Shown here in pieces: positions 45,716 to 62,039 of a stretch of DNA of 64,000 bases. Where the stretch lies: the NCBI GenBank assembly GCA_022841915.1, contig JALHQN010000002.1, forward strand, positions 338,724 through 402,723. The letters are read 5' to 3'. The DNA is from Burkholderiales bacterium. Lineage in GTDB: Bacteria; Pseudomonadota; Gammaproteobacteria; Burkholderiales; WYBJ01. Positions within the stretch are counted from its first letter, which is position 1; every line of letters begins with the position of its first letter. The notes beneath the pieces are model-generated. The model was given only the letters and a program-made list of their open reading frames with translations. It was not told the DNA's origin and searched no databases. A program made the translations under genes and the position numbers.

Positions 45716-46112
45716 TCGTCTGCACCTCGATCAGATAGGCCTCGGCTGCGAGACGATCGATCACCAGCAGGGTGTTCGGCGGGTACTTTGCATCGCTGAA
45801 CCACTGTGCGAACACGCGTTGCCGGAAAGCTCGCCACTTCGGAATGTCCTCCGCGCGCGTGAGATAGGTCGTGAATTGAACGACATCGCTCCAGGTTGCT
45901 CCGGCGGATTTCAGCGCTGCCTCGATGTTGAGGAAAACCTGAGCCGCTTGCGCGTCGAAGTCGTTCTCGCCCACGACTTTGCCGCTCGCGTCGCTCGCCA
46001 CCATCCCGGCGATATAAAGTCGTTCGGCGGCGTTGCGCACGCGTGCGACGTGGGAGAAGTGGCCGGAAGGCTGTCCCAGTTCCGGCACGTTGTAGATGGA
46101 TATGTCCGCCAT
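45702..46112 (-). CDS. RidA/YjgF family protein
   Basis: ORF 45702..46181. Start is ATG 46112 (residue 24). About 136 aa. HFSHVARV...LYIAGMVA...DVVQFTTYL is the typical family pattern. Confidence 0.8.
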   Translation of the reverse strand: MADISIYNVPELGQPSGHFSHVARVRNAAERLYIAGMVASDASGKVVGENDFDAQAAQVFLNIEAALKSAGATWSDVVQFTTYLTRAEDIPKWRAFRQRVFAQWFSDAKYPPNTLLVIDRLAAEAYLIEVQTIAEL

Positions 46113-46123
46113 GACGGCTGGCC

Positions 46124-48893: not shown

Positions 48894-50803
48894 GGCCTCA
48901 CCTGCCTCTTACGCGCCAGCGCGAGCCCTGCTCCGATGAGAATGACGAGCAGCGGAATCGCGCCGATGTTGACGACCTTGGTCCAGAACTGAAGAGACTC
49001 CGCATCCTGACGAAGGTTGCGGCGCAGCTCCTTCAGATCGCGCTTCGTTTCCGTCGAGCGCTTGCGGAAGTTGTCGACCTCCACCTGCTGCTCGGGCGAG
49101 AGCACGATGGGTCCCGTGTCCCGGGCCTCACCCCTGCGCTTCTGGATGTCTTCGAGCTTCTTCTGGGTTTCCATCAGATCGTCCTCGAGTTCCTTGATCT
49201 TGCCGAGGTACGCTTCCTGAGCCTTGGACTCCATTTCGCGCACGACGGTTAGCGGGCGCGTGAACGCGGCGCGGCTGCGCAGGTTGATCAGGTTCTTGTC
49301 GGATGCGAGCTGCTCCACCAGGCTTTGCGCCAGGTTGAGGTTGCCGTTGCGCGGCACGATGACGCGCTGACCGAAGACGTCCTGGATATCGACCGCGGCA
49401 TTGTCCGTGAGCATGTCGGCGTCGGCCACCAGAACGACGGTGCCTTCCTCCTTGCTTTCCTTCAAATGCGGCTCGGCCGCTTCGGGTTTCTTCGCTTCGC
49501 CGTCCTTGGCCTCGCCTTCCTTCTTCAGCTCGGCGTAGGGATCCTTCGGCTTGCCGTCCGGATAGGCGCTCTTGAACTTGCCGGTGAGGCGGATCGCAAG
49601 CGGCTGCTCGGTGTTGGTCGGCTCGAAGCCCTTGGTCGAGGGCTCCCCGGTCAACGTGGCGATGATGAGATCGACCGGCATGTTGTTGGGCGAGCTCTTG
49701 GCCAGGACGGTCATGTTGAGCCCTTCCGCCGGCTTGCCCTTGAAGTAGCCGCCGAAGGCGTAAAGCAGTGTGCCGACCTGGCTCGTGACCGGGTCATCGG
49801 CATTGAGGGCGCCGCCGGTGAGGTTGAGCAGGGTGGGCAGCAGGCGCGGACCTTCACCGCTGCCGTAGGTCAGGTCGGCGAGCACCTTGGACATGTCCAT
49901 CTCGAAGCCCCAGCTCTTCATCAAAGTGTGGAGCGAGGACTGTCCGGCTTGCGTGCCGCCGAGCGGGTTTTGCATGTCACGCTGCTGGTCGAAGTACATG
50001 AAGGGATCGACGAAGGCGATCACCTTGCCGCCGCGCATCATGAACTGATCGATGGCGTACTGCGTGATGTCGGTGATTTCACGCGGATGCACCACGAGAA
50101 GCACCTTGACGTCGGCATCGATCTTCTCCGCAGTCATGGCGACTTCCTTCAGTTCGAAGTCGCGCTTGAGTTCCGAGATCAGCACCCAGGGCTCGGTCAG
50201 GCCTTTTTGCTCCTGCATGGCCAGGGGAGAGAGGCCGCGGCCGAATACAGGCACCGCGCTCATGACGCCGATCACTGGCTTCTTGACTGTAGACACCCGG
50301 GCGACGGCGCGCGTGAGGTCGTATTCGAGCAGGCGCTCGCGCTCGGGCGTCAGCACGGGAATCGCGACCTTGTCGTCGAGTTGGCTGATGGCAAGACCGA
50401 GGTAGAACTTCTCGCCCGTATTGAGCATCTGCCCTTCGATGCCGTCCAGCGTGGCCGACTCTTCAGCGTCCGAGTCGGGCTGCGGGTTGTACTTCTCCAC
50501 GATGACCTTGCCGCCGGACACCGAGCGGAATTCGCCCAGCAGATCCTCCACGCGCTGAGCGAAGGTTCTCAGCGCCACCGGCGTCGCTTCGCCCTGCGTG
50601 TAGTAGAAGCGGATCTTCACCGGCGAATCGAGCTTGGTGAGGATGGCGCGCGTGCCTTCCGAGAGCGTGAACACCTTGCCTTCGGTGAGATCGATGCGCG
50701 CGCTCACGGGCGACATGATGTAGTTGACCGCGATCAGGATGAGCGCGAGCGCGACCACCCCGGCAGTCGAGTAGAGGAAGGTTTCCAGTCCCTTCTTTTG
50801 CAT
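48890..50803 (-). CDS. GldG-like ABC-transport auxiliary component
   Basis: 637 aa. N-terminal TM segment, a large periplasmic domain, and a C-terminal coiled-coil plus TM segment (…NIGAIPLLVILIGAGLALARKR). It occupies the GldG position after the ABC-2 permease. Confidence 0.75.
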   Translation of the reverse strand: MQKKGLETFLYSTAGVVALALILIAVNYIMSPVSARIDLTEGKVFTLSEGTRAILTKLDSPVKIRFYYTQGEATPVALRTFAQRVEDLLGEFRSVSGGKVIVEKYNPQPDSDAEESATLDGIEGQMLNTGEKFYLGLAISQLDDKVAIPVLTPERERLLEYDLTRAVARVSTVKKPVIGVMSAVPVFGRGLSPLAMQEQKGLTEPWVLISELKRDFELKEVAMTAEKIDADVKVLLVVHPREITDITQYAIDQFMMRGGKVIAFVDPFMYFDQQRDMQNPLGGTQAGQSSLHTLMKSWGFEMDMSKVLADLTYGSGEGPRLLPTLLNLTGGALNADDPVTSQVGTLLYAFGGYFKGKPAEGLNMTVLAKSSPNNMPVDLIIATLTGEPSTKGFEPTNTEQPLAIRLTGKFKSAYPDGKPKDPYAELKKEGEAKDGEAKKPEAAEPHLKESKEEGTVVLVADADMLTDNAAVDIQDVFGQRVIVPRNGNLNLAQSLVEQLASDKNLINLRSRAAFTRPLTVVREMESKAQEAYLGKIKELEDDLMETQKKLEDIQKRRGEARDTGPIVLSPEQQVEVDNFRKRSTETKRDLKELRRNLRQDAESLQFWTKVVNIGAIPLLVILIGAGLALARKRQVRP

Positions 50804-50816
50804 CGTCGGTTCCTCC

Positions 50817-51554
50817 TCAACCAGCGCGCAGGCCGCGGATGATGACGCCGGTGGTGAACAGGGCGAGGCCTATCACCGAAGCAAAGAACACGACGTCACG
50901 AACATCCACGATACCGCGCTGAAACGCATCGAAATGTGTCATCACCGAGAACGAGGCGACGACCTGAACGACCTGGGGGCTCGCCCACTGCGACAGAAGA
51001 TCGGTCACGGGGTTGTAGCCGCACAAAATCAGGAACAGCAGGATCAGTACCGACAGAATGAAGCTGATGACCTGGTTGCGCGTCATGGCCGACGTCATGC
51101 AGCTCACGGCGAGGTAGGCGCCTGCCAGCAGCACGCTGCCGACGTAGCCCGAGGCGATGACGCCGTTATCGGGATCGCCCAGCCAATTGACGGTGATGAT
51201 GACCGGGAAGGTCAGCGCCAGCGCCAACGCCAGGAACAGCCACGAGGCGACGAATTTGCCGACGATGGCTTGCCAGGTCGCGATGGGCAGAGTCAGCAGC
51301 AACTCCAGGGTGCCCAGACGGCGCTCTTCGGACCACAAGCGCATGCCCACGGCGGGAACCAGGAACAGATAGAGCCACGGATGCCAGGTGAAGAAGGACA
51401 CCAGCGAGGCTTCGCCGCGCTCGAAGAAATTCCCCACCGTGAAGGTGAAGAATCCGGTCAACAGCAGGAAGATCACGAGAAACACGTAGGCTACGGGCGA
51501 TACGAAGTAACCCGCGAGTTCACGCTTGACGATGGTTATGACACCGCCGCTCAT
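50817..51554 (-). CDS. ABC-2 type transporter permease (GldF-like)
   Basis: 245 aa with six hydrophobic segments. Its ATG overlaps the ATPase stop (ATGA). Confidence 0.8.
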   Translation of the reverse strand: MSGGVITIVKRELAGYFVSPVAYVFLVIFLLLTGFFTFTVGNFFERGEASLVSFFTWHPWLYLFLVPAVGMRLWSEERRLGTLELLLTLPIATWQAIVGKFVASWLFLALALALTFPVIITVNWLGDPDNGVIASGYVGSVLLAGAYLAVSCMTSAMTRNQVISFILSVLILLFLILCGYNPVTDLLSQWASPQVVQVVASFSVMTHFDAFQRGIVDVRDVVFFASVIGLALFTTGVIIRGLRAG

Positions 51555-52516
51555 TGACGAGCCTCCTTAATCGTGTCGGGCAAGGTGATCGAGCGGAACA
51601 CCTCGTCGAAATGGCCTTCTTCGGTGCGCAGGTCTTCCAGTTGCCAATGGCGCTGGCTGACCAGTTCCATCACCGCGCGCACCAGAGCGGGTTTTTGATC
51701 GGGGGAGTCGGGATGCGCGCGCACCACCGACTGTTGCGGCGTCTCGCTGAGCGTGTCGACACGGACAACGAGATCGATCGAGGACAGGGCTTCGCTCAGT
51801 TCGGCGGCGGTCACGCCTGAAACGACCACGGAAACCGCGCCGGCCAAATGAGAGCGTCGGCGCAATTCGTCCGGCGTGCCGTTGGCGACGATCCTGCCGC
51901 GGTCGATGATGATCACGCGCGAGCAGGCGGCGTCGACTTCTTCCAGGATATGCGTGGAGAAAATGACCGCCTTGTTGGTACCCATGCGCTTGATGAGATT
52001 GCGCACCTCGTGCTTCTGATTCGGATCCAGGCCATCGGTCGGCTCGTCCATGATCAGGATGTCGGGATCGTGGATGATCGACTGCGCGAGGCAGGTGCGA
52101 TGCCGATAGCCTTTCGACAAGGTGTCGATGGTCTGGTAGAGCACGTTCTCCAGCATGCACAACTCGACAGCCCGGTTCACGGCGCGTTTGCGGGCATCAC
52201 CGGTGATGCCACGCATCTCTGCGGTAAAGCGCAGAAAGCCCTGCACCGTCATGTCGGCATAGGACGGCGCATTCTCCGGCAGATAACCGATCAGACGCTT
52301 GGCCGGTATGGGGTTGGTGAGGATGTCATGACCACCGACGCTGATGCGTCCCGCCGTCGGTGGGATGAAGCCCGTCACCATGCGCATGGTGGTGGACTTG
52401 CCCGCGCCGTTCGGCCCAAGAAATCCCAGCACCTCTCCTCGCTCCACACTGAATGACACGTCATTGACGGCGATCTTGGGGCCGAAGTTCTTGATGAGGT
52501 TCTCGACCTTGATCAT
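51551..52516 (-). CDS. ABC transporter ATP-binding protein (GldA-like)
   Basis: Walker A GPNGAGKSTT, signature LSKGYRHR, Walker B ILIMDEP. AGAGGGGA ribosome-binding site. Confidence 0.9.
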   Translation of the reverse strand: MIKVENLIKNFGPKIAVNDVSFSVERGEVLGFLGPNGAGKSTTMRMVTGFIPPTAGRISVGGHDILTNPIPAKRLIGYLPENAPSYADMTVQGFLRFTAEMRGITGDARKRAVNRAVELCMLENVLYQTIDTLSKGYRHRTCLAQSIIHDPDILIMDEPTDGLDPNQKHEVRNLIKRMGTNKAVIFSTHILEEVDAACSRVIIIDRGRIVANGTPDELRRRSHLAGAVSVVVSGVTAAELSEALSSIDLVVRVDTLSETPQQSVVRAHPDSPDQKPALVRAVMELVSQRHWQLEDLRTEEGHFDEVFRSITLPDTIKEARQ

Positions 52517-52800
52517 TGTGTTCCCCTCTTTGTATTGACGACGCTAGCCCGTTCGTCGGTGTCGCGATCGTCGACCGTCGGCTTGCAATTCCGACCCTGC
52601 GCGCGCTCCTCCGCGCTCACGCGATGTCGATCTAGCTGCTTGAATAATCGCAAAAACTGCAGAAGGCGGCGAAGTCTACACGAATAAGCGAAGCATCGCC
52701 AAGATATGGCCTGCCGGTGTGAATACAAGGCCTGAACGGCCGAAATTCTTCACCTGTGCTCGCGCCCGCGGCGAGGCAGCGTCCCTGGTGGCTGCATGCC

Positions 52801-52806
52801 TATAAT
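52801..52806 (+). promoter_or_regulatory. candidate -10 hexamer (TATAAT) for the 3-hydroxyacyl-CoA dehydrogenase gene
   Basis: A perfect tataat lies 39 nt upstream of ATG 52845. No convincing -35 is present. Confidence 0.3.
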
Positions 52807-52844
52807 CGCCGCCTGCATCCCACACTAATCAGCGGAGAATCCAC

Positions 52845-53768
52845 ATGGCCAAACGCGGCGTCGCCATCATCGGCGGCGGCATCATGGGCGGCGACATTGC
52901 AACCAGTTTTGCAGCGGGGGGCTGGGATGCACACGTCATGAGTCCCTCGCCGAAGACCCGTGAGGCCTTGCCGGGGCGGGTGAGCAAGGGTTTGGAGCGC
53001 CTGGGCGCCGGGGCTGGGTGCGCCGCCGCGGTGCAAGCCCATGCCGCGCTGACGGACATCCCCTGGCAGGGCGTCGATCTGTGCATCGAGGCGGTGACCG
53101 AGGATCTCGCGCTCAAGCACAAGGTGTTCTCGGCGGTGGAGGCGTTGGCGCGCCCCGAGATTCCCCTGGCGACCAATACTTCGAGCTTTCCCGTCACGGA
53201 AGTGGGCAGACATCTGAAGACGCGATCCCGGCTTTGCGGCGCGCACTACTTCATGCCCGCGCACCTGGTGCCGCTGGTCGAGGTCGTCTGCGCCGAGTTC
53301 ACGGCGCCGAAAGTGGCCGAAGAAGTCGAGGCCATCATGACTTCGGTCGGCAAAGTGCCGGTCATGGTGAAGAAGGACATCCCGGGCTTTCTGGCCAACC
53401 GGATGCAGCACGCCCTGTTGCGGGAGGTGCTCTGGCTGCTGGAGAACGACATTGCGACCCCGGAGGGCATCGACGCGGCCGTTCGGTACGGCTTCGGCTT
53501 CCGCTTCATCGCCTGCGGCCCGCTGATGCAGAAGGAAATGTCGGGCTGGGATACCAACTTCTATGCGGGCAGCACCATCTACCCCAGTTTGTCGAACGCA
53601 TCTGCGCCGCCGAAGATGCTCAAGGACATGGTCGAGCGCGGCGCGATCGGCATGAAGACCAAGCAAGGCCTGTGGCCTTGGACGGACGACGCCATCGCGC
53701 GCGAAAAGTCGCGCTACGAACAGGCGCTGCAGGCCGGGTTCAAGATCCTGCAGGCCGAGAAGAAGTAG
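52845..53768 (+). CDS. 3-hydroxyacyl-CoA dehydrogenase family protein
   Basis: VAIIGGGIMGGDIA Rossmann motif, NTSS, and the C-terminal HCDH domain. GGAGA ribosome-binding site. Confidence 0.85.
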   Translation: MAKRGVAIIGGGIMGGDIATSFAAGGWDAHVMSPSPKTREALPGRVSKGLERLGAGAGCAAAVQAHAALTDIPWQGVDLCIEAVTEDLALKHKVFSAVEALARPEIPLATNTSSFPVTEVGRHLKTRSRLCGAHYFMPAHLVPLVEVVCAEFTAPKVAEEVEAIMTSVGKVPVMVKKDIPGFLANRMQHALLREVLWLLENDIATPEGIDAAVRYGFGFRFIACGPLMQKEMSGWDTNFYAGSTIYPSLSNASAPPKMLKDMVERGAIGMKTKQGLWPWTDDAIAREKSRYEQALQAGFKILQAEKK

Positions 53769-53809
53769 TTTCGAACGGGGACAGCCTGGCTTGGCTGTCC
53801 CCGACCGCG

Positions 53810-54241
53810 TCAGCCTCGCTGGCTGGCGTAGGTCCCGCGGCCGACCGCCAACAGGCGGCCCTGCTCGTCCATCACGTCGATGTCGATGACGGCCGACGTC
53901 TTGCCGGCGCGCCGGACACGGGCGATGCCCACCACCGAATCGCCGATCGCCGGACGCAGGTAGTCGATGCGCAGGTTCATGGTGGGCACACCGCCGCCCA
54001 CCTGCATGCCGATGGCGAAATCGCCGACCGTGTCGATGAACGAGGCGAGCGGGCCGCCGTGAAACTGCTTCGTTCCCAGGCGGCGCTCGAGTTCCGGCCT
54101 GAGCGGCATGCGCACTTCGAGTTCGCCCTTGTCGTGATCGAGCGCGATCACCTTGAGGCCGAGGAAGGAGATGAAGGGCGAAGCATCGAAGATGGCCTGT
54201 ACGCCCGCTACGTCGAGTTTCTGGGGAGTCGATTCGCTCAT
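53810..54241 (-). CDS. PaaI-family hotdog thioesterase
   Basis: This is the C-terminal 143 aa of the 371-aa track ORF. ATG 54241 lies 2 nt after the upstream stop. HGGPLASFIDTVGDFA motif. Confidence 0.8.
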   Translation of the reverse strand: MSESTPQKLDVAGVQAIFDASPFISFLGLKVIALDHDKGELEVRMPLRPELERRLGTKQFHGGPLASFIDTVGDFAIGMQVGGGVPTMNLRIDYLRPAIGDSVVGIARVRRAGKTSAVIDIDVMDEQGRLLAVGRGTYASQRG

Positions 54242-54243
54242 GG

Positions 54244-55257
54244 TCAGATCGCCTTCACCACGACTTTGCCGAACACCTCGCGCTCTTCCAGCAGGCGAAA
54301 GGCTTCGTTGACTTCTTCCAGCGGCAATTCGCGATCGATGGTCGGTGTCAGTCGCCCGTCCTTGATCATGTCGAGCAGCAGATGGAGGTCTTCGCGCATC
54401 CAGCCGTTGGAGCCGAGCACCTGCAATTCGAAGGTCCAGATGAAGCGCAGATCCTCGACCGGATCGTAGCCCGCGGTCGCACCGCAGGTCAGCAGCCGGC
54501 CTTGCCGGTGCAGCGCGCGCAAGGATTTCACCCACGTGTCGCCGCCGGTGAAGTTGACGACCACGTCGACGCCGCCTTCGAACTTGCGCCGATGCGGCTT
54601 GCCCCATTTCTCGTAGGCCCATTTCACGAAGTCCTGCTTCGTGTAATCGATCAGATGATCGGCGCCGAGTTCGGCCAGGCGCTTGAGCTTCGATTCGCTC
54701 GAGGCGCAGGCGATCACCTCGCAGCCGGCGAGTTTCGCCAGCTGCACGCAGCAGGTGCCCACGCCGCCCGATGCGCCGAGGATGAGCACGCGCTCGCCCT
54801 TGGCGATCTTGCCGATGGTATGCATCATGCGCACGGCCGTGCCGTAGGCGACCGGCAGGCAGGAGGCGGCTTCGTAGGAGACTTCGGCGGGCAGTTCGAC
54901 CAGATGATGCGCCGGCACCGCGCAAAACTGCGCCAAACCGCCGGGGCGCATCTCACCCAGCAGGCCGCCGAAGTTGACGCGATCCACCGGGTCGACCATC
55001 ACGCGTTGACCGACGCGCCAGCCCTCGACGCCTTCGCCCACTTCGACGATCTCGCCGGCGAAATCCAGCCCCATGATGCATGGCATCGGCACCTTGATTC
55101 CGGGCATGCCGCGGCGGGTGAAGATGTCGTGGTAGTTCAGTGTCGCCGCCTTCACGGCCAGGACCACCTCGCCGGCTGCCGGTTTGGGGTCGGGATAGTT
55201 GTTCTCGATCTGGATCGAACCCGGTCCGCCGTGTTCGCGTATAACCGCCGCTTTCAT
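54244..55257 (-). CDS. MDR-family zinc-binding dehydrogenase / quinone-oxidoreductase-like
   Basis: MKAAVIREHGGP...GLDFAGEIVEVG and ILGASGGVGTCCVQLAK. Its ATG overlaps the VOC gene stop (ATGA). Confidence 0.85.
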   Translation of the reverse strand: MKAAVIREHGGPGSIQIENNYPDPKPAAGEVVLAVKAATLNYHDIFTRRGMPGIKVPMPCIMGLDFAGEIVEVGEGVEGWRVGQRVMVDPVDRVNFGGLLGEMRPGGLAQFCAVPAHHLVELPAEVSYEAASCLPVAYGTAVRMMHTIGKIAKGERVLILGASGGVGTCCVQLAKLAGCEVIACASSESKLKRLAELGADHLIDYTKQDFVKWAYEKWGKPHRRKFEGGVDVVVNFTGGDTWVKSLRALHRQGRLLTCGATAGYDPVEDLRFIWTFELQVLGSNGWMREDLHLLLDMIKDGRLTPTIDRELPLEEVNEAFRLLEEREVFGKVVVKAI

Positions 55258-56129
55258 TTGTCGTTCTCCTCAAAAAAATGCAGGGTCGCACCGCAGCCCT
55301 CGGCCGGGTCCACCCAGATGCCATCGCGCTCGTCGATCGAGACGCCGCGTTGTAACAGCAATTGACGTGTTGCGGCCAGCGACTTCACCCGCACGCCGAA
55401 TCCCACTGCCGCGGGATGACCTTCCGCAGCGGGCGTGCCGCAGCGAGCTGCCCACTGCGCCGCATCGAAGACATGCACGCTGCCGCGCGTGAGCCCGACC
55501 AAGCCGTGCCCCGGCGTGAGGCGCTCGGGCCGTGTGCCAAGGATGCCGCCGAGCTTGGCACCGAGCGCGTCGACGTCCTCGCTGCAAAAGTAGACATGCT
55601 CCAGAGCCACCGCGCCGTTCGGATGGTCGAGCAGATGCGGCTGCCAGAGCACGTCGCGCGTCAGGTGCTCGATGTAGAGAAAGCGCGCTTCCGGATACGG
55701 GCCGCGATCCAGATAGATGTTGCGAAAGCGCGCGCGGCGCACGGCTTTGTCGTCGGGACCGTAGGCCGCATCGCGTTCCAGCGCACGGGGGGCTTCCACG
55801 GGAACACCGGCCTTGCTCAGTGCCTGGAAGGTCGCGTCGGCATCTTCGCAGCCTAGCGCAACGATATGAAGGCCTTCGTACCGCGCGACCATGTCCTTGA
55901 CCGAGCTGTAGCGGCTGGGGTCGGTGAGCCCGAGCACTTCGATGTAGCCCGTGCCGAGCATCGCGCAATGATTGCCCGAGCCCCAGGGCACGATCGGGGC
56001 GCCTGCGCTCGGTGAGCCCGAATGCATGCTGCGCGCGGTGAGGCGAAAGCCCAGGCGCTCGTAGGCCGTTCGGCCGCGCTCCAGATCCTTGACGCCGATA
56101 CCGACGTGGTCGAGCTTCAGATCAAGCAT
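55254..56129 (-). CDS. two-domain VOC (glyoxalase/dioxygenase-fold) family protein, paralog A
   Basis: LDHVGIGVKDLE...GYIEVLG is the N-terminal VOC module. It is clearly paralogous to the upstream gene. Its ATG overlaps the paralog B stop by 8 nt. Confidence 0.75.
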   Translation of the reverse strand: MLDLKLDHVGIGVKDLERGRTAYERLGFRLTARSMHSGSPSAGAPIVPWGSGNHCAMLGTGYIEVLGLTDPSRYSSVKDMVARYEGLHIVALGCEDADATFQALSKAGVPVEAPRALERDAAYGPDDKAVRRARFRNIYLDRGPYPEARFLYIEHLTRDVLWQPHLLDHPNGAVALEHVYFCSEDVDALGAKLGGILGTRPERLTPGHGLVGLTRGSVHVFDAAQWAARCGTPAAEGHPAAVGFGVRVKSLAATRQLLLQRGVSIDERDGIWVDPAEGCGATLHFFEENDK

Positions 56130-56946
56130 GTTGGACGAGCCTCATCACGAATCCGTTGGTCGCGCCCGGGGGCAGCCAGTGTTCGTCGCCGCTGCGCCGG
56201 ACGTCGATGCCGCGTTGCTCGAGCAGCGTGAGGGTTTGGGCGAGGTCGAGGAAGGAAATCGTGATCGCGGCAATGCAGGGGGCGGGGGGCTGCCAGCCGT
56301 AGCGACGCTGGAACTCGCCCGGGCTTTGCACTCGGGCGATTGCGTCGAGCGCTTCGACCCGCGCGACCACGTTTGCATCGTCGGTGACGATGAGCGCCTC
56401 TTCGAGCGCCTGCGCCCCGTTCTCGTGCTGCATCAGTTCGGGCTGCCAAAGCAGTTCCGGGGTTTGGTGCTCGATGACGATGTAGCGGCCCTCGGGACAG
56501 GCGCTGTCCCGCGAGAAGATGTTCCGAAAGCGCATCGTGCGCGCCTCGCCTCGGTAGGTTAGCGTGCGCTCACGCTCGACAGGTGGCGCCAGGAACGGTG
56601 CTTTGTGCCGAAGTCTCGCAAAGGCTGCATCGGCCTCGGTACAGCGCAGAGCCAGTAGGTGCAGACCTTCGAAGCGGTTCAAAAAGCTCCGCCAGGGGTT
56701 GTAGGCCGCGGCATCGACCGTGCCGATGAGTTCGAGGTAGCCGCGGCGCAGGATCGCGCAGCGATTGGCGGTTGCCCAAGGCTGCATCTGGGCCTCGCCT
56801 GGCACTGCGCCGCGTTGCCGGCTGAGCGGCGAGAGCGCGAACCCGAGCCGCTCCCAGCGGCTGGCGGCCGCGGCGAGATCGTGCGTGATGGCGCCGACGT
56901 GGTCGAGCGCGAGTTCAGCGGCCTGCGTCACCGGCCTCACTGCCAC
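56122..56946 (-). CDS. two-domain VOC (glyoxalase/dioxygenase-fold) family protein, paralog B
   Basis: LDHVGAITHDL...GYLELIG. Candidate GTG starts lie at 56946, 56940 and 56931, and all overlap the ligase 3' end. The start is uncertain. Confidence 0.7.
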   Translation of the reverse strand: MAVRPVTQAAELALDHVGAITHDLAAAASRWERLGFALSPLSRQRGAVPGEAQMQPWATANRCAILRRGYLELIGTVDAAAYNPWRSFLNRFEGLHLLALRCTEADAAFARLRHKAPFLAPPVERERTLTYRGEARTMRFRNIFSRDSACPEGRYIVIEHQTPELLWQPELMQHENGAQALEEALIVTDDANVVARVEALDAIARVQSPGEFQRRYGWQPPAPCIAAITISFLDLAQTLTLLEQRGIDVRRSGDEHWLPPGATNGFVMRLVQHA

Positions 56947-58429
56947 GCCATTGTTGCAAGGCGAGCGCTGCCAAGATCTTGCGATCCACCTTGTTCGTGC
57001 CCGCCAGCGGGAACTCGCCCATGAACGTGACTTGCCGGGGATGCTGATAGGCGGGCGCGTTGGAAAGCGCGTATTGCTTGACGTCGTCTTCGGTGAGTGC
57101 GGCGCCTGGCCGGGGAATCACGAAGGCGAAAGGCTTCGCGCCCTTGATCTCGTCGGGCACCGCGACGACGCAGGATTGCATGATGTCGGGGTGCGTTTCG
57201 AGCATGTGCTCGACCTCGCCGGGATAGATGTTCTCGCCGCCGCAGACGAACATGTCGTCGGCGCGACCGACGAAGAAGTACGCGCCCTGATCGTCGCGCC
57301 GGAAGACATCGCCCGAGATGTACCAGCCGTCGGTTGTCAGCACCTCTGCCGACTTCTGGGGAAGGTTCAGATAGCCCTTCATGTTCGCGGGGGTGCGTAT
57401 CCAGAGCACGCCCTCGTCGGCGTCGCAGCCGTCGGCGTCGACCAGGCGCACCTCGACACCAGGCATGGGCCAGCCCAGCGCGATGTCGGGCTTCTTCTTG
57501 CCCTCGGGCGACGGACCGAACATCACCGGCCCGGCTTCGGTGGTGCCGTAGGAGTTGAGGACCGTCGCCGCCGGGAACACCCGCCGAACGTCGTCGACCA
57601 GTTTCTGCGTAATCGGCGCCGAACCCATGCGCACGGTGCGCACGCTGGACAAATCGGTGCGGGCGAGCGTTTCCTTCTCGCGCACCGCCATGGCGATCAT
57701 CGTGGGCACGGACGTCACCCATGTCACGCCGTAACGACCGATCGCTTCGATGTAGTGGCGCGCGTCGAACTGCGGCATCAGAACCATGCTCGCCTGGGCT
57801 GCCAGCGCGAACTTCGCACTGCCGAGGGCGTTCATGTGGAACAAGGGCGCGGCAACGAGCAGCCGCTGATCCTTGAAGGGGCCGGGGGCGATGCGCGAGC
57901 GCACCGTCCACAGATGGCCTTCGTGATCGAGCGGCACGCCTTTGGGCCGGCCGGTCGAGCCCGAGGTGTAGAGAATCATCGCGATCGCGCCGGGATCGGG
58001 ATGGACGGTGTCGAACTCGGGCGGACCCAGGAAGCCTTGCCAGTCGGACTCGAACTCGACCGTGGGCATGCCGGCGGGCAGCAAGCTGCGGCGAGCCGCA
58101 TCGCAGAACACCAGGCGCACGTCTGCATCCTGCAGAACGAACTCGATGGTCGCACGCGGAAACTTGTGATTGATGGGCACGGCGACCAGCCCGGCCCGCA
58201 TGCTGCCGAAATACGCCGCCAGGAACTCGGCCCGGTTGGCCGCCAGGATGCCGATGCGCTGCCCGGGTGTGAGGCCCTTTCTCCTGAGCCCGTTGGCGAC
58301 GGAACGCGCAAGGCGATCCATGTCGCCGTGGCTGTAGTGCACCGGCCGCTCCCAATCGAGGCAATCGATCAGCGCGGTGGCGGCGGGGTCCTGCGTAGGG
58401 GCGACCAAGTCGCCGAGATTGAACAGCAT
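56915..58429 (-). CDS. AMP-dependent acyl-CoA synthetase/ligase
   Basis: ORF 56915..58627. Start is ATG 58429 (residue 67). LYTSGSTGRPKGV (AMP-binding motif I), YGTTE, and GDV...D..GY.F.GR.DD. Confidence 0.88.
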   Translation of the reverse strand: MLFNLGDLVAPTQDPAATALIDCLDWERPVHYSHGDMDRLARSVANGLRRKGLTPGQRIGILAANRAEFLAAYFGSMRAGLVAVPINHKFPRATIEFVLQDADVRLVFCDAARRSLLPAGMPTVEFESDWQGFLGPPEFDTVHPDPGAIAMILYTSGSTGRPKGVPLDHEGHLWTVRSRIAPGPFKDQRLLVAAPLFHMNALGSAKFALAAQASMVLMPQFDARHYIEAIGRYGVTWVTSVPTMIAMAVREKETLARTDLSSVRTVRMGSAPITQKLVDDVRRVFPAATVLNSYGTTEAGPVMFGPSPEGKKKPDIALGWPMPGVEVRLVDADGCDADEGVLWIRTPANMKGYLNLPQKSAEVLTTDGWYISGDVFRRDDQGAYFFVGRADDMFVCGGENIYPGEVEHMLETHPDIMQSCVVAVPDEIKGAKPFAFVIPRPGAALTEDDVKQYALSNAPAYQHPRQVTFMGEFPLAGTNKVDRKILAALALQQWRGSEAGDAGR

Positions 58430-58820
58430 AGTCGAACGTGGGTTGTCTGGGTCAGCCGGCGATCGCAGAGCCTCGTGCTGTCGGCGGTCGCGCTGGAGCG
58501 CAGGACCACCGGCCCTCGATGTGATCTGCCGGACGCAATGTCGGCGGCCAGTGTAACCGCTTGCGTTGTGCTTTGCCACGAAGGGGGATCGGCTGGACCT
58601 CACGGTGCGCGGGCGATGGCTGCGCACCCTGGCTGCGAGTTCTTCGATGGGCGTCGCGCATCGTTCCTATCGAGATCAGCCGATTTGGGTCGTTAAGGCT
58701 CGCAATGCGTCATCATGCTCGCCTGATCGCAGGCAGCGCTTCGCGATGCGGAGATGGCGATCGCAGTGACGTCCGAACGGCTCGCCCGATGAACGAGATT
58801 CTCTGGAGAGGAAAACAACG

Positions 58821-59405
58821 ATGGAATGGATCTTCCTGGCGGCTGTCGTGGCCGTGGCCGGTTACGGCATCGTCATCTACAACGGCCTGGTCGCCTTGCG
58901 CAATCGGGTCAAGAACGCTTTTTCGCAGATCGACGTGCAGTTGCAGCGTCGCTACGACCTGATTCCGAATCTGGTCGAGACCGCCAAGGGTTACCTGGCG
59001 CACGAGCGCGGAACGCTCGAAGCCGTGATCGCGGCACGCAACCAGGCGCAAGCCGCTGCGGGACGCGCGAGCGCTGGCGCAGCAGGCGCCATCGGGGAGT
59101 TGGCCGGGGCCGAGGCCGCGCTGGGCGGCTTGCTGACACGCTTCTTCGCCCTTGCGGAGGCCTATCCCGACCTGAAGGCCAATCAGAACATGGCGCAGTT
59201 GCAGGAGGAACTTGCCAGCACCGAGAACCGAGTCGCCTTCGCGCGCCAGGCGTACAACGACGCGGTCATGGGCTACAACACCAAGCGGGAGCAATTCCCC
59301 GATTCGGTCGTTGCCAATACCTTCAACTTCGCGGCTGCCGAACAGTGGCAATTGGAGAGCGCGCAAGCGCGCACCGCGCCGAAGGTGAGCTTCGGCCAGT
59401 CCTGA
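58821..59405 (+). CDS. LemA family protein
   Basis: N-terminal TM segment followed by YNGLVALRNRVKNAFSQIDVQLQRRYDLIPNLVETAKGY, the LemA consensus. GGAGAGG ribosome-binding site. Confidence 0.9.
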   Translation: MEWIFLAAVVAVAGYGIVIYNGLVALRNRVKNAFSQIDVQLQRRYDLIPNLVETAKGYLAHERGTLEAVIAARNQAQAAAGRASAGAAGAIGELAGAEAALGGLLTRFFALAEAYPDLKANQNMAQLQEELASTENRVAFARQAYNDAVMGYNTKREQFPDSVVANTFNFAAAEQWQLESAQARTAPKVSFGQS

Positions 59406-59420
59406 TCGAGATCGGGCACG

Positions 59421-62039
59421 ATGGACTTCTTCGCAGCGCAGGACCGCGCGCGACGCGCGAGCCGCTGGCTGTTGCTGTGGTTTTTCCTGGTGGTGGCGGC
59501 CACCATCATGCTGGTCTATCTGGTCATCGCGCCGCCACTGGCCGGCCAAGGCGCCAGCCTCTGGCGGCCGGGGTTGTTCTTTCTCGTTGCCTTCAGCGTC
59601 GGCGGCGTGATCCTCGGCGGTTCAGCCTGGAAGGTGGCTGAGCTCGCCGCTGGCGGGGGTGCGGCGGTCGCCCATTCGTTGGGGGGGCGGCTTGCGACGC
59701 GCACGAGCGCCGACCCCGCGGAGCGGCGCTTGCTCAATCTCGTCGACGAGATGGCCCTGGCCGCCGGAATTCCGGCTCCGCCGGTGTACGTGCTCGAGAA
59801 CGAAAGCGGCATCAATGCCTTCGCCGCCGGCGCCCGAGCGCAGGAAGCCGTCGTCGCCTTCACCCGAGGCGCACTGGAGAAACTCACGCGCGATGAGATG
59901 CAAGGCGTGGTCGCGCACGAGTTCAGCCACATCCTCAACGGCGACATGCGCCTCAATCTGCGGCTCATGGGCGTTCTGCACGGCCTTTTCATGCTCGCTA
60001 CCGCCGGGCGGCTCCTGCTCAGAAGCGGCGGCGGTCGGTCGTCGGGCAGGAACCGAGGCGGCCTGGTCGCGCTGGGTGTTGCGCTGATCGTCGCGGGCTA
60101 CGTCGGCGTGCTGGCCGGACGGTTGCTACGCGCCGCCGTCTCGCGTCAGCGGGAGTTCTTGGCCGATGCATCGGCTGTGCAGTTCACCCGCAATCCAGCG
60201 GCCGTGGCCGGCGCCTTGCGCAAGATCGCGGGAGAAGGCGCCGGGCTCGTCCATGCGCGCGCCGATGAGGTGAGCCACATGCTGTTCGATGCCGGGCGCA
60301 GCTTCGCGGGCTGGTTCGCCACGCATCCGCCGTTGCCCGAACGCATCCGTCGCATCGAAGGTGGCGTGGGGTTCGTCGCCGTGCCGCCGACCATCGCGCC
60401 GTTGCCCGGTCTTGCGGCGGTCGCGAATGAAACGCTCGCGACAGCCTTTGCTGTCACGCCACCGGTCGCGATCCCAGCCCCGCAGGCCTATGCGCAGCGT
60501 ATCGGGGCACTGGCCGCCGAACAGGTCGAGGCCGCGCGCGACCTGATCGAAACCTTGCCGGACAATCTGCGTCGTGCCGTGTCCACGCCGTCCGGCGCGT
60601 GTGCGGTCGTTCTCGCGCTGCTGCTCTCGCGAAATGCCGAACAGCGGGCCGATCAGCTTGCCGCTGTGGCGCGTCGCTACGACGAGGTATTCGCACGGCA
60701 GGTCGCCGCAGCCATCGCAGACGACCTGGCGCCGAGCTTGCGCCTGCCGCTGATCGAACTCGCGCTCGGCGCGCTGCGCGAAATGCAGGCCCACGCGCGC
60801 GATGACTTCCTCGCCGCCGGCGATGCGATGGCGCGCGCGGATGGGCGCGTGAGCCTCGGCGAGTACGTCCTGCTGCGCCTGCTGCGAGACGCGCTGGTGC
60901 CGCGAATACCGTCTCCCATGCGACTCATCCCCGGCGAACTGGCCGCGCATGGCGCGCTGGTGCTGTCGCTCGTTGCCCATGCGGGGCACCGTGATTCGGA
61001 CGCAGCCGCCGCGGCTTTCGGACCAGGCGCGAGCCGTGCGCCTACCGACGGCTTGACGCTGCTGCCGCGCGCCGAGATGCGCACCGAGGCGCTCGACCGG
61101 GCATTGGACAACCTGTCATGCGCCGCCCCCGGTTACCGCCGCCGCCTGGTCGAAGCGCTCGCTGCCGTCGCCTGGCACGATGACCGCCTCGGTTCTGCCG
61201 AGGCTGAACTGCTCGCGGCCGTCTGCAGTGCGCTCGATTGTCCCGTGCCCCTGCCGCCGGTGCCCGATGTCCGCGCAAGAACCGGCGCAGCTGCGAGTGC
61301 AGACGGCTCGCCTGCGGCGGCAGTCGGTCTCACGGCGTCGCCGCGAACGCCGGAGGTCGCGCTGGCGAGCGCAGATCGGCTGCCGGTCCAGGCGCTGGTG
61401 GCTGCCAACCTGATTCCCGTGATCGGCGTGTTCTTCTTCGACTGGGATGCCCTGACCTTGTTGTTGACCTACTGGCTGGAGAACCTCGTGGTCGGCGCCT
61501 TCACCTATGCGCGCATGGCGCGCGTCGGCGGTTGGACCACCCTGTTCTCGCCCGGCCTGTTCTTCCTGTTCCACTATGGCTTCTTCTGCGCCGGCCACGG
61601 CATGGTGCTCATGGGCATCGGCGCGATGACCGGCTTGTCGGTCGACCTCGCTGCCTACGTCGGCGACGTGGAATGGCCCGGGCCATTCGTCATTTTTCAG
61701 GAACTCACCGGTATCCTGCTGTGGATCGCGAACGAGCGCCCGGAGATGCTGCTGGCGCTGGTCGGATTTTTCGCCAGCCACGGCGTGTCCACTCTCGTCC
61801 ATAACTTCATCGGCGACGAGGACCGAGGACGCGAGGTCAAGCAGATCATGTTCGATCCCTACCGGCGCATCCTCGTCCTGCATGTCGCGATGATCGCCGG
61901 CATGTTCGTCGTGATCCTGTCCGGCGGGGCCAGCATCGTGCCTGTGCTGCTGCTCATGGTGGCGGGCAAGATCGCCTTGGACCTGCATCTGCACCGCCGG
62001 GCGCATCGGTCGCGATTGTTGCAGACCGCGGGTGCGTGA
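59421..62039 (+). CDS. M48-family zinc metallopeptidase fused to TerB-like repeats and a C-terminal polytopic (DUF6498-like) membrane domain
   Basis: H166-E-F-S-H170 (HExxH) and REFLADASA (third ligand region), with flanking TM helices. Middle segments such as ARADGRVSLGEYVLL and WHDDRLGSAEAELLAAV are TerB-like. The last 219 aa (from nt 61380) are multi-TM (NLIPVIGVFFFDWDALTLLLTYWLENLVVG...). Confidence 0.8.
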   Translation: MDFFAAQDRARRASRWLLLWFFLVVAATIMLVYLVIAPPLAGQGASLWRPGLFFLVAFSVGGVILGGSAWKVAELAAGGGAAVAHSLGGRLATRTSADPAERRLLNLVDEMALAAGIPAPPVYVLENESGINAFAAGARAQEAVVAFTRGALEKLTRDEMQGVVAHEFSHILNGDMRLNLRLMGVLHGLFMLATAGRLLLRSGGGRSSGRNRGGLVALGVALIVAGYVGVLAGRLLRAAVSRQREFLADASAVQFTRNPAAVAGALRKIAGEGAGLVHARADEVSHMLFDAGRSFAGWFATHPPLPERIRRIEGGVGFVAVPPTIAPLPGLAAVANETLATAFAVTPPVAIPAPQAYAQRIGALAAEQVEAARDLIETLPDNLRRAVSTPSGACAVVLALLLSRNAEQRADQLAAVARRYDEVFARQVAAAIADDLAPSLRLPLIELALGALREMQAHARDDFLAAGDAMARADGRVSLGEYVLLRLLRDALVPRIPSPMRLIPGELAAHGALVLSLVAHAGHRDSDAAAAAFGPGASRAPTDGLTLLPRAEMRTEALDRALDNLSCAAPGYRRRLVEALAAVAWHDDRLGSAEAELLAAVCSALDCPVPLPPVPDVRARTGAAASADGSPAAAVGLTASPRTPEVALASADRLPVQALVAANLIPVIGVFFFDWDALTLLLTYWLENLVVGAFTYARMARVGGWTTLFSPGLFFLFHYGFFCAGHGMVLMGIGAMTGLSVDLAAYVGDVEWPGPFVIFQELTGILLWIANERPEMLLALVGFFASHGVSTLVHNFIGDEDRGREVKQIMFDPYRRILVLHVAMIAGMFVVILSGGASIVPVLLLMVAGKIALDLHLHRRAHRSRLLQTAGA

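Follow-up and report, generated by a model that had tools for sequence, protein, structure and literature searches.

A conserved operon for an acyl-CoA ligase, a VOC metalloenzyme, an ene-reductase-like protein and a thioesterase in Burkholderiales and other proteobacteria, possibly for processing a small polar acid

Genes for a two-domain VOC metalloenzyme (VOC2), a zinc-free medium-chain dehydrogenase/reductase (MDR) and a hotdog thioesterase (TE) recur together in dozens of proteobacteria, mostly uncultured, and to judge from the sequences this core is a real functional unit. It is quite probable that this core belongs to an operon dedicated to CoA-dependent chemistry, with the VOC protein acting on the product of an acyl-CoA ligase (LIG) and the MDR serving as an ene-reductase. 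The best explanation as a whole, to which a probability of about 0.4 is given, is a line for elimination and then reduction of a small polar acid; the specific elimination-then-reduction chemistry is put forward more tentatively.

The window, i.e. the whole stretch of DNA that was analysed, comprises 64,000 nt of the forward strand from a Burkholderiales bacterium (GCA_022841915.1, JALHQN010000002.1:338,724-402,723), and its positions are used throughout. Five minus-strand genes at 53810-58429 stand in the transcript order LIG, VOC1, VOC2, MDR, TE. The AMP-forming ligase of the ANL superfamily (56915-58429, 504 aa) starts at the ATG at 58429, which is backed by homologues of 500-508 aa. For VOC1, a Glyoxalase_3 two-domain paralogue (56122-56946, 274 aa from the GTG at 56946), the start is ambiguous, with in-frame GTGs also at 56940 and 56931 and a 269-aa start picked by gene callers on identical contigs, and the overlap with LIG is 32, 26 or 17 nt according to the start chosen. 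VOC2 (55254-56129, 291 aa) overlaps VOC1 by 8 nt and meets MDR (54244-55257, 337 aa) in an ATGA, a 4-nt overlap, and a gap of 2 nt separates MDR from the PaaI/4HBT-class TE (53810-54241, 143 aa). Genes, positions and all four junctions are as an earlier note on this DNA had placed them, and its domain assignments for the five proteins are borne out by Pfam and NCBIfam searches. Co-transcription, stoichiometry and reaction order of the set are what we infer.

The gene-neighbourhood conservation that the earlier note had proposed to check is found for VOC2, MDR and TE, which occur together in 59 of 80 related loci; 50 of these also have a ligase orthologue (at least 50% identity) no more than 8 kb away. 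These core loci span Burkholderiales, Bordetella/Achromobacter, Xanthobacteraceae and marine Alphaproteobacteria, and throughout the two classes, Beta- and Alphaproteobacteria, gene set, order and short junctions are kept while the flanking genes change completely, so that the arrangement is more than chance. TE directly follows MDR, with a gap of at most 30 nt, in 55 of the 59. The idea of all five genes as a unit stands for the core and not for the second VOC, which is lineage-specific and confined to some of the Burkholderiales MAGs (the analysed set has 21 members); VOC1 and VOC2 overlap or nearly overlap in 30 of 30 loci, the junctions being extrapolated from tblastn. None of the five proteins comes up to any curated equivalog cut-off in NCBIfam and literature searches yielded no description of a pathway with a matching ligase/VOC/MDR/TE operon, in keeping with the earlier view that the gene set matches none described.

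The 391 bp between LIG and a divergent LemA gene (58430-58820, minus strand) contain no regulator gene, no Rfam match and no consensus sigma-70 match. The description of a regulator-less upstream region of 390 bp is apt for the window but not for all relatives, since 20 of the 59 core loci have an adjoining Lrp/AsnC regulator. A 17-nt block, CGCAAGCGGTTACACTG, at 58565-58549 is common to the window and its closest relative, L005, in a two-sequence alignment (the motif is present in L001 and L005 only) and is a weak promoter candidate, with TACACT as the -10. At the other end a perfect 11-bp inverted repeat with a 6-nt loop (53776-53803), positioned between the convergent stops of TE and a 3-hydroxyacyl-CoA dehydrogenase-family gene, is possibly a bidirectional terminator hairpin; a consensus terminator scan missed it because it has no T-tract.

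LIG has the Pfam domains AMP-binding (265 bits) and AMP-binding_C (57 bits) and reaches no NCBIfam cut-off, the top model being PRK06187 (324 bits, cut-off 476). Its best PDB matches, at only about 200 bits, are 4-coumarate-CoA ligase, gramicidin synthase (LgrA) chains and feruloyl-, oxalyl- and malonyl-CoA synthetases. Pertinent to what follows it is a natural LIG::VOC fusion of 798 aa, identical in three independent assemblies, after which come MDR and TE, overlapping by 1 and 4 nt; the fusion argues for a functional link between VOC and ligase.

VOC1 and VOC2, with 32% identity (E 1e-44), are by this measure true paralogues, and both match PF13468, Glyoxalase_3 (81.5 and 99.9 bits, respectively). 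Invariant in the 21 VOC1 members are H16/E72/H96/E159, N61 and C63; in 65 VOC2 sequences H8, E64 and H88 are invariant with E, D or Q at position 154, as are N53, C55, R119, H155, H165 and H169. Structure prediction, suggested earlier for the VOC pair and carried out on VOC2, gives an AlphaFold (AF2) model of mean pLDDT 94.5 with two beta-alpha-beta-beta-beta barrels, in agreement with the two-domain fold that had been assigned, and structurally it is matched best by 3P8A, itself uncharacterised. The metal site is in the N-terminal barrel, domain 2 being without conserved His or Glu, and from its residues it is a predicted four-ligand His/Glu/His/Glu site of the methylmalonyl-CoA-epimerase/glyoxalase-I, proton-transfer type. 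Among the options that the earlier note left for this fold, i.e. isomerase, epimerase or ring-cleaving enzyme, such a site is compatible with the proton-transfer ones and disfavours ring cleavage. Together with the fusion it also lends support to the suggestion that the VOC proteins act on a CoA thioester. The VOC reaction may be beta-elimination, epimerisation or isomerisation, both substrate and reaction being what we infer.

The MDR (Pfam ADH_N, ADH_zinc_N and ADH_zinc_N_2) has NYHD and GLDFAGE where Cys and His zinc ligands would stand, a feature kept in 58 orthologues, in which there is also no structural-zinc Cys loop. No other gene of the set is as well conserved (72% median identity), and the protein forms its own highly conserved clade. 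The best PDB matches are 2EIH, then 5K1S (E 6e-48), which we take to be AibC, the enoyl-CoA (3-methylcrotonyl-CoA) reductase of Myxococcus, and then crotonyl-CoA reductases, its closest named solved relatives. AibC, AcuI/YhdH and crotonyl-CoA carboxylase/reductases are MDRs that likewise lack zinc, and their reaction is reduction of the C=C in short 2-enoyl-CoAs. The present protein differs in its separate clade, in being shorter (337 aa) than the solved crotonyl-CoA reductases (about 445-467 aa) and in that all its NCBIfam matches, to PIG3 (the best), crotonyl-CoA reductase (146 bits, cut-off 379), acryloyl-CoA reductase (AcuI, 90, cut-off 440) and YhdH (113, cut-off 297), are below the curated cut-offs. 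It is probably an NAD(P)H-dependent enoyl-CoA (C=C) reductase, and the reduction step envisaged previously gains from the missing zinc ligands and from these relatives. The thioester-release step likewise gains from TE, whose H61-G62-G63, D70 and D74, the HGG...D catalytic motif, are invariant in 39 of 39 orthologues. TE matches PF03061 (49.9 bits) and is above the cut-off for TIGR00369 (80.7 bits, cut-off 36.6) and below that for the PaaI equivalog (41 bits, cut-off 118.9).

In the elimination-then-reduction line, LIG would make the acyl-CoA, a role for which the family is evident and the substrate conjectural. The VOC metal centre would bind the thioester and take the alpha-proton as methylmalonyl-CoA epimerase does and, in the preferred version, the enolate would expel a beta-substituent (sulfite, sulfide, thiolate, sulfoxylate or ammonia) to leave a 2-enoyl-CoA such as acryloyl-CoA; VOC1, added in this lineage, may pair with VOC2. 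The reactive C=C would be reduced at once with NAD(P)H by the MDR, a role suggested by its family and whose gene appears translationally coupled to that for VOC2 through the ATGA, and TE would presumably hydrolyse the saturated acyl-CoA to the free acid and recycled CoA. Counting against elimination, we know of no VOC enzyme that is a beta-lyase on a CoA ester, and there is no characterised member of this VOC subfamily, of the ligase clade or of the MDR clade.

Near the operon the window has no transporter, thiol dioxygenase or regulator, and the substrate clues therefore all come from relatives at 45-80% identity. A thiol dioxygenase gene is present in 13 loci, and in nine of these it directly adjoins LIG, the arrangement being of two kinds. 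A gene for cystathionine beta-lyase that passes the curated cut-off is present in five loci, a SufS-like gene in four and DUF2817 in 23; in 11 loci TE is directly followed by an amidase gene, and an amino-acid racemase with a cysteate-racemase-like match is adjacent in two lineages. These neighbours argue for a heteroatom-bearing substrate. Taken with the SsuA-like ABC importers and Lrp/AsnC regulators of relatives, they suggest that a small acid is derived from sulfur or acidic amino acids. Against the best explanation, the sulfur-related ones are in a minority of loci only, and a sulfur-starvation role gains no support from the Cys+Met content of the operon proteins, which at 2.8-5.0% (window mean 3.5%) is not depleted. 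In favour of the best explanation, 3-sulfopropionate is a natural sulfonate (PMC11489063).

Among known systems the 3-mercaptopropionate/3-sulfinopropionate pathway of Advenella mimigardefordensis and Variovorax paradoxus, involving Mdo, SucCD or Act, and the desulfinase Acd (PMC5373536, PMC6370202), is similar in having a thiol dioxygenase gene by a CoA-activating enzyme and a step that desulfurises the CoA ester, with TctC nearby. In Advenella the thiol dioxygenase gene mdo is beside those for the CoA-activating enzyme and 3-sulfinopropionyl-CoA desulfinase (PMC5373536), and it is in that place that Bordetella and Achromobacter have the present module, with an Mdo-like gene directly by LIG there and in several Burkholderiales MAGs. 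The differences are that activation in that pathway is by succinyl-CoA synthetase or a CoA-transferase and desulfination by an enzyme of acyl-CoA-dehydrogenase fold, and that the window is without a thiol dioxygenase. No operon protein matches the desulfinase model, and neighbouring ACAD-family genes score 71-83 bits against its cut-off of 600. The single-operon logic of ligase, modifying enzyme and thioesterase is also that of the 4-chlorobenzoate operon (FcbA ligase, FcbB 4-CBA-CoA dehalogenase and FcbC 4-hydroxybenzoyl-CoA thioesterase), where an AMP-forming ligase adds CoA only to permit removal of a substituent and a hotdog 4HBT/PaaI-type thioesterase frees the acid. There, though, a crotonase-family enzyme acts on an aromatic ring and there is no reductase, whereas the present set has a Glyoxalase_3 VOC metalloenzyme and then an MDR of probable ene-reductase function, with a substrate that is probably aliphatic.

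Less probable than elimination, and overall unlikely, is a reading in which the VOC epimerises or racemises a 2-substituted acyl-CoA, much as methylmalonyl-CoA epimerase or alpha-methylacyl-CoA racemase would. LIG would then activate an unsaturated or branched acid, the MDR would reduce its C=C to give a chiral C2, and the VOC protein(s) would set the stereochemistry needed by TE or a downstream acyl-CoA dehydrogenase, i.e. a line for CoA-dependent reduction and chiral inversion. To our knowledge the only well-described VOC working on a CoA thioester is methylmalonyl-/ethylmalonyl-CoA epimerase, whose chemistry is alpha-proton abstraction, and in a weak profile match (E 6e-4) H8, E64 and H88 of VOC2 fall on three of the epimerase's four metal-ligand positions. 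Two paralogues, each with a complete site, could serve two stereoisomers, the racemase gene adjoins in two lineages, and there is moderate similarity of LIG to malonyl-CoA synthetase and of the MDR to the crotonyl-CoA carboxylase/reductases that make alkylmalonyl-CoA. In some marine relatives a PimC-like acyl-CoA dehydrogenase accompanies the VOC, and MDR and TE are absent, a pairing that suits an epimerase at least as well as the elimination-then-reduction line. Yet with 22.8 bits VOC2 falls short of the cut-off of the methylmalonyl-CoA epimerase model (115), has two barrels and about 290 aa where the epimerase is one barrel of 130-150 aa, and is set apart by PF13468 and its extra invariant residues; the genomic context differs too, with no carboxylase or mutase partner in any of the loci, and it would be left unexplained why thiol dioxygenase, C-S lyase, amidase and importers of sulfonate type recur. 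CoA-dependent chiral inversion of 2-arylpropionates resembles the locus in its triad of ligase, epimerase and thioesterase with CoA as a transient handle, but its epimerase has the alpha-methylacyl-CoA racemase (CaiB) fold rather than that of a VOC, and it lacks a reductase.

A somewhat lesser chance is given to the elimination-then-reduction module with TE for proofreading or CoA rescue only, as with PaaI in phenylacetate catabolism. A TE of PaaI type may be such a rescue enzyme and not the last step. The reduced acyl-CoA would pass to beta-oxidation via the neighbouring 3-hydroxyacyl-CoA dehydrogenase and two-subunit acyl-CoA dehydrogenase, and the operon would be the entry branch of a carbon-catabolic pathway, with which the normal Cys and Met content would agree. 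The former gene (52845-53768, plus strand; Pfam 3HCDH_N and 3HCDH, no NCBIfam cut-off met) is convergent with TE, as had been noticed, at a distance of 41 bp, and is also convergent at the cluster end in L005 (76% identity) and L086; missing from more distant loci, it is a syntenic neighbour of uncertain pathway membership. In the window the PimD/PimC-like acyl-CoA dehydrogenase pair lies at 62288 and on past 64000; in L005 it immediately adjoins LIG in divergent orientation. Most relatives, though, have lost these neighbours (L086, with a 97% identical ligase, has a TonB-dependent receptor in place of the pair), and TE is itself among the most constantly linked genes.

Improbable is a role for the VOC proteins as O2-dependent dioxygenases (extradiol, hydroquinone or HPPD type) whose substrate would be either a thiol or a CoA ester of aromatic or quinol nature, with the MDR as quinone reductase. 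Foldseek gives HPPD and hydroxymandelate synthase as two-barrel structural neighbours (TM about 0.6), JGI names homologues 'catechol 2,3-dioxygenase-like', the best NCBIfam match of the MDR is to a quinone oxidoreductase family, and there is a PobA-like hydroxylase beside LIG in four marine loci and UbiD-like decarboxylases in up to seven. But identity to HPPD is just 9-13%, the conserved ligands are four and N-terminal rather than a 2-His-1-carboxylate triad in the C-terminal barrel, and no ring-hydroxylating, hydrolase or aldolase partner is conserved among the related loci. Chance packing of generic CoA/fatty-acid housekeeping genes in a compact high-GC genome is very improbable, for though all five proteins are from large, promiscuous superfamilies and fall short of specific curated cut-offs, it is disfavoured by the synteny, by the fusion and by the small size of the VOC subfamily (of 1.84 billion representatives searched, only 306 clusters, formed at 50% identity, come up to E 1e-30).

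With elimination and then reduction as the preferred reading, the locus would use CoA as a 'handle' for processing a small polar carboxylic acid, probably C3-C4 with a sulfur or nitrogen substituent and derived from the breakdown of sulfur or acidic amino acids. The uptake systems in relatives argue for its use in catabolism or assimilation: of the 59 core loci, 31 have an SsuA-like ABC substrate-binding protein and 21 have TctC.

Five consecutive minus-strand genes, as the earlier note had them, are borne out by an ORF map together with Pfam and NCBIfam scans: an acyl-CoA ligase, LIG (56915-58429, 504 aa, AMP-binding plus AMP-binding_C); two Glyoxalase_3 paralogues, VOC1 (56122-56946, 274 aa) and VOC2 (55254-56129, 291 aa); a reductase, MDR (54244-55257, 337 aa, ADH_N plus ADH_zinc_N); and a PaaI-type thioesterase, TE (53810-54241, 143 aa, 4HBT hotdog). 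On re-reading, the junctions are as claimed. LIG and VOC1 overlap by 32, 26 or 17 nt according to which in-frame GTG, 56946, 56940 or 56931, is used (gene callers chose a 269-aa form of VOC1 on identical metagenome contigs), VOC1 and VOC2 overlap by 8 nt and VOC2 and MDR by ATGA, with 2 nt separating MDR from TE. An internal-promoter scan gave no promoter-like site inside the operon, and the terminator-like sites in it number three against 3.2 expected from shuffles; since no site above shuffle expectation splits the operon, co-transcription of all five genes is likely, judged from sequence. The upstream region, put earlier at 390 bp, measures 391 bp between LIG and a divergent LemA gene. An Rfam scan of 52500-59500 found no riboswitch or leader RNA family upstream of LIG, the sole match being a chance snoRNA (E 0.43). 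A 17-nt block, CGCAAGCGGTTACACTG, at 58549-58565 (minus strand) is kept amid an otherwise diverged LIG upstream region in L005, the closest named relative (a Burkholderiales MAG, 66-90% identity), and TACACT inside it may be a -10 element. At the other end, a 3-hydroxyacyl-CoA dehydrogenase gene converges on TE and lies 41 bp from its stop, and the interval contains a perfect 11-bp inverted repeat; compared with L005, the window appears to have lost a binding-protein/ABC/DUF2817 block from this interval.

The surroundings merit brief description. On the plus strand, 58821-62039 encodes LemA (194 aa) and then an 872-aa fusion protein, in which an M48/HtpX-like peptidase is joined to a weak TerB-like stretch and, at the C-terminus, DUF6498; this pair adjoins LIG also in the locus L001 and in L086, a drinking-water-type JGI metagenome contig with a 97% identical ligase and the same layout as the window, and is absent from L005. 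Beyond it lies a PimD (small)/PimC (large)-like acyl-CoA dehydrogenase pair (62288-63436 and 63447 to beyond 64000, both plus strand) of pimeloyl-CoA dehydrogenase type, all scores being below cut-off. The dehydrogenase pair is directly divergent from LIG in L005; in L086 a TonB-dependent receptor stands there instead, so that the linkage is weak and the pair was rejected as an operon partner. On the other side, an ABC-2 type transporter set at 48890-52516 (minus strand) comprises an ATPase, an ABC-2 membrane protein and, carrying DUF7088, a GldG-like auxiliary protein; next comes a 379-aa protein without a family match. L086 shares this synteny, and the set seems to have no connection with the operon. 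A class D beta-lactamase of 264 aa (46888-47682, plus strand; 266 bits against 250 for the NCBIfam class-D model), whose gene is also in L086, has OXA-198-like carbapenemases as its best specific family (381 bits, under the cut-off of 515) and is perhaps an environmental enzyme related to the OXA-198 lineage; upstream of its gene, at 45702-46732 (minus strand), are neighbouring RidA/L-PSP family and glutathione S-transferase genes.

Conservation of the gene neighbourhood, a check that the earlier note had proposed, proved considerable. The exact VOC2 protein is encoded also on Logan contigs from runs SRR281545xx. A search of one genome per GTDB species with two VOC2 peptide patterns yielded 107 relatives, a lower bound that depends on the patterns, and 80 loci were fetched. 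By tblastn with the window proteins, VOC2, MDR and TE are kept together in 59 of the 80 (several of the rest being truncated contigs), and in 50 of these 59 core loci a LIG orthologue (identity 50% or more) lies within 8 kb. VOC1 is restricted to a subset of Burkholderiales, and the conserved core is thus one of four genes. Median gaps, as extrapolated from the alignments, are -10 nt for VOC1 to VOC2, 15 nt for VOC2 to MDR and -1 nt for MDR to TE; MDR is the most conserved (median identity 72%) and VOC2 the least (50%). The genes flanking the module are wholly different from lineage to lineage. Its hosts comprise uncultured Burkholderiales, Bordetella bronchiseptica, B. petrii, Bordetella sp., Achromobacter, Orrella, Chitinasiproducens and a Herminiimonas MAG among betaproteobacteria, and further Xanthobacteraceae/Bradyrhizobiaceae and many marine Alphaproteobacteria, the habitats of carriers (Bordetella and Achromobacter included) being soil, groundwater, drinking water and the sea. 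In Bordetella sp. BOR01 and B. petrii the genes form a compact operon, VOC2-MDR-TE-LIG-dioxygenase, adjoining AsnC.

The ligase belongs to the ANL superfamily (PF00501, 265 bits; PF13193, 57 bits), whose marks are an AMP-binding N-domain with AMP-binding_C, (T/S)SGSTGxPKG, YGxTE and a C-terminal catalytic Lys; YTSGSTGRPKG, YGTTE and GTNKVDRK are read in the translation. Its PLFH motif is of the acyl/aryl-CoA-ligase and not the amino-acid adenylation type. LIG falls below every specific NCBIfam ligase equivalog cut-off (malonyl-CoA synthetase, MenE, FadD3, FadD, CaiC and others), the best score being 324 bits against 476 for PRK06187, with 251 against 558 for malonyl-CoA synthase and 212 against 330 for MenE; its best solved relatives reach just about 200 bits, and the source names of LIG and VOC homologues are generic throughout. 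A profile search of 1.84 billion representatives showed the VOC subfamily to be small (306 clusters at E 1e-30).

Among its relatives is a 798-aa fusion protein, P0249, that joins a LIG orthologue (residues 1-500, 58% identity) to a VOC2 orthologue (residues 513-798, 46%). Identical copies of its gene are on three contigs from three different samples (L087, 918-3314; L088, 788-3184; L089, 773-3169), and so it is not an assembly error. On L087 the fusion gene is followed by MDR and then TE, with overlaps of 1 and 4 nt; the other two contigs end within or just past the MDR gene. The strongest single argument that the VOC protein works on the product of the ligase comes from this fusion. On all three contigs it is preceded by a gene for an amino-acid racemase of Asp/Glu type with a sub-threshold cysteate-racemase match, and at another locus, L078, a racemase 48% identical to the fusion-linked one is directly upstream of VOC2. 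Apparent VOC1::VOC2 fusions are a different matter: one, P0242, is a frameshift artefact with an Arg-rich out-of-frame stretch, and the other, P0241, known from a single contig, was set aside as evidence.

Both VOC proteins are members of Glyoxalase_3 (PF13468; VOC2 99.9 and VOC1 81.5 bits, threshold 25.1), and the AF2 model of VOC2 (pLDDT 94.5) has two barrels of beta-alpha-beta-beta-beta modules. In the N-terminal barrel H8, E64 and H88 of VOC2 are invariant in 65 sequences, position 154 being E, D or Q; the same four ligand positions in VOC1 are H16/E72/H96/E159, invariant in 21 of 21 sequences. A PDB profile search with VOC2 found methylmalonyl-CoA epimerase (E 6e-4), with H8, E64 and H88 on its ligand positions. 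The predicted site fits the four-ligand centre of methylmalonyl-CoA epimerase and glyoxalase I, in which a single barrel carries His, Glu or Gln, His and Glu on the outermost strands (first and last) of its two modules. Such a site is typical of proton-transfer members of the superfamily, these two among them, whereas the dioxygenases have a 2-His-1-carboxylate site. An extradiol or HPPD-type dioxygenase would have an Fe(II) triad of that kind in its C-terminal barrel and O2-dependent ring chemistry; the C-terminal barrel of VOC2 has no conserved metal ligand, no His or Glu being conserved in domain 2 (residues 173-287), and its likeness in fold to HPPD reaches only TM about 0.6, at 9-13% identity, all of which speaks against this assignment. 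Nor are the proteins methylmalonyl-CoA epimerase itself: VOC2 scores 22.8 bits against 114.95 for TIGR03081 and VOC1 has no match to it, and at 291 and 274 aa with two barrels they are unlike the single-barrel enzyme of about 130-150 aa. PDB profile and structure searches returned no close solved or characterised relative, the best structural match of VOC2 being the uncharacterised 3P8A. In an annotated plasmid collection the only relatives were VOC paralogues at about 30% identity, set in other surroundings. One closes another operon on Pantoea vagans C9-1 plasmid pPag3 (345844-362656), with genes for a TIGR04028 binding protein, an ABC transporter, a luciferase-like FMN (LLM) monooxygenase, an AhpD-like protein and an amidohydrolase, and suggests repeated recruitment of the wider Glyoxalase_3 family into uptake-linked catabolic clusters.

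MDR, with ADH_N and Rossmann domains in Pfam, belongs to the zinc-free (quinone oxidoreductase/enoyl reductase) branch, which lacks both the catalytic Cys/His/Cys and the structural-zinc Cys4 loop: across 58 orthologues the ligand positions are taken by NYHD and GLDFAGE, and residues 90-110 hold no Cys cluster. Its nearest solved relatives are 2EIH and 5K1S (the latter being AibC, a 3-methylcrotonyl-CoA reductase), followed by crotonyl-CoA reductases. Named identities fail by NCBIfam cut-offs, namely YhdH (113 against 297 bits), AcuI (90 against 440), crotonyl-CoA reductase (146 against 379) and Thermoproteota acryloyl-CoA reductase (145 against 500). TE is in the PaaI/4HBT hotdog class (TIGR00369, 80.7 bits, cut-off 36.6) without being the PaaI equivalog (41 against 118.9 bits); H61-G62-G63 and D70, nine residues past the His, are invariant in 39 of 39 orthologues, the Asp being presumably catalytic by analogy with PaaI and THEM2.

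What accompanies the core in relatives is informative as to substrate. An SsuA/TauA-like (NMT1) binding protein with ABC ATPase and permease is encoded at 31 of the 59 core loci, DUF2817 at 23, a TctC binding protein at 21, an Lrp/AsnC regulator at 20, a CDO-family thiol dioxygenase at 13, an amidase directly after TE at 11, and an opine-oxidase-like DAO/Pyr_redox_2 pair directly before LIG likewise at 11 (marine Alphaproteobacteria). Rarer are cystathionine beta-lyase above its curated cut-off (five), a SufS-like protein (four) and a UbiD-like decarboxylase (four, up to seven among all 80 loci). None of these accessory genes, importers, Lrp/AsnC, thiol dioxygenase and amidase included, is in the window. 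The thiol dioxygenase gene flanks LIG in two independent ways: Bordetella and Orrella have it downstream, other Burkholderiales MAGs upstream. Its product keeps the iron-binding histidines and an S-x-H-x-Y motif and has 3-mercaptopropionate dioxygenases as nearest solved relatives (E 4e-18); with Arg in place of Gln62 of the P. aeruginosa enzyme, it is not a 3-mercaptopropionate dioxygenase of the Gln type.

With the protein families, conserved catalytic residues, conserved synteny and the ligase-VOC fusion as observations, the following course may be pictured. LIG would activate a small polar acid to its acyl-CoA; a VOC protein would take the alpha-proton from the thioester; beta-elimination of a sulfur or nitrogen substituent would give a 2-enoyl-CoA, to be reduced by the translationally coupled MDR; and hydrolysis of the thioester would be the final step. 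This chemistry of elimination, reduction and hydrolysis is favoured because relatives encode uptake systems and feeder enzymes (thiol, C-S, amide) and because the module has a dedicated thioesterase. Candidate substrates would include 3-sulfopropionate, which arises in nature as sulfoquinovose and homotaurine are degraded (PMC11489063), and also beta-amino acids, mercapto- or sulfosuccinate, 3-sulfinopropionate and 3-mercaptopropionate. In its most specific form, to which we give a probability of roughly one in five, the proposal is that the Glyoxalase_3 protein is the first acyl-CoA beta-lyase of the VOC superfamily, which, once the ligase has activated the acid, would use its metal to assist an E1cB (retro-Michael) elimination. 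A C3 organosulfur acyl-CoA (3-sulfopropionyl-, 3-sulfinopropionyl- or 3-mercaptopropionyl-CoA) would lose its sulfur group in this way and yield acryloyl-CoA, for immediate reduction by the coupled MDR. The main rival has the VOC protein epimerise a 2-substituted acyl-CoA. Epimerisation is the one VOC/CoA chemistry known, and it suits the marine loci in which acyl-CoA dehydrogenase takes the place of MDR and TE, a PimC-like gene adjoining VOC2 homologues in seven such alphaproteobacterial loci.

Elimination by the VOC protein has to be set against the described desulfinase route from 3-sulfinopropionyl-CoA (Mdo-Act/SucCD-Acd). In Advenella, mdo adjoins genes for a CoA-transferase and the desulfinase, and the present module occupies an analogous place beside the thiol dioxygenase (PMC5373536). 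The acyl-CoA dehydrogenase fold is absent from the operon proteins, ACAD-family genes near the operon score 71-83 bits against an Acd desulfinase (NF042439) cut-off of 600, and an Mdo-like gene, present in 13 of the 59 relatives, is absent from the window; that route was accordingly rejected for the operon. The proteomics papers of the Steinbuchel group (PMC5373536 included) mention neither a glyoxalase, a thioesterase nor a zinc-binding dehydrogenase. The exclusion of the paa, box, gentisate and methylmalonyl pathways stands, TE falling short of the PaaI equivalog and partner genes being missing: no family of paaABCDE/GZJFH, boxABC, gentisate dioxygenase or propionyl-CoA carboxylase/mutase is represented among the genes annotated up to about 9 kb to each side in the window, or among the neighbour clusters that recur at the 80 related loci. 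Cys and Met are undepleted in the operon proteins, which gives no sign of a sulfur-starvation regulon. Full-text literature searches found no paper on the gene set, in agreement with the earlier failure to match a described pathway, and no operon protein reaches an NCBIfam equivalog cut-off. In 4-chlorobenzoate dehalogenation CoA is a mere handle for taking off a substituent, a logic that the dedicated thioesterase here resembles. The operon would work like known CoA-handle operons and is drawn from known superfamilies, the gene set itself being undescribed in the literature searched.

Were the module instead to process branched acids through an epimerase and a reductase, it would be a modest addition to CoA-dependent catabolism. 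If the favoured chemistry is true, the VOC superfamily would gain a new reaction type that goes beyond epimerisation, that of a CoA-ester lyase or isomerase, and a new clade of ligase and enoyl-CoA reductase would be defined. The beta-lyase would, further, be a sulfur-elimination route non-homologous to the Acd desulfinase, and would supply the missing aerobic fate of 3-sulfopropionate and 3-mercaptopropionate in Burkholderiales, Bordetella and marine Alphaproteobacteria. Cultured and genetically tractable carriers (B. bronchiseptica, B. petrii and Achromobacter spp.) make the module directly testable, and the genes could serve as a marker for turnover of small organosulfur or amino-acid-derived acids, such as 3-sulfopropionate from sulfoquinovose/homotaurine breakdown and 3-mercaptopropionate from DMSP/methionine.
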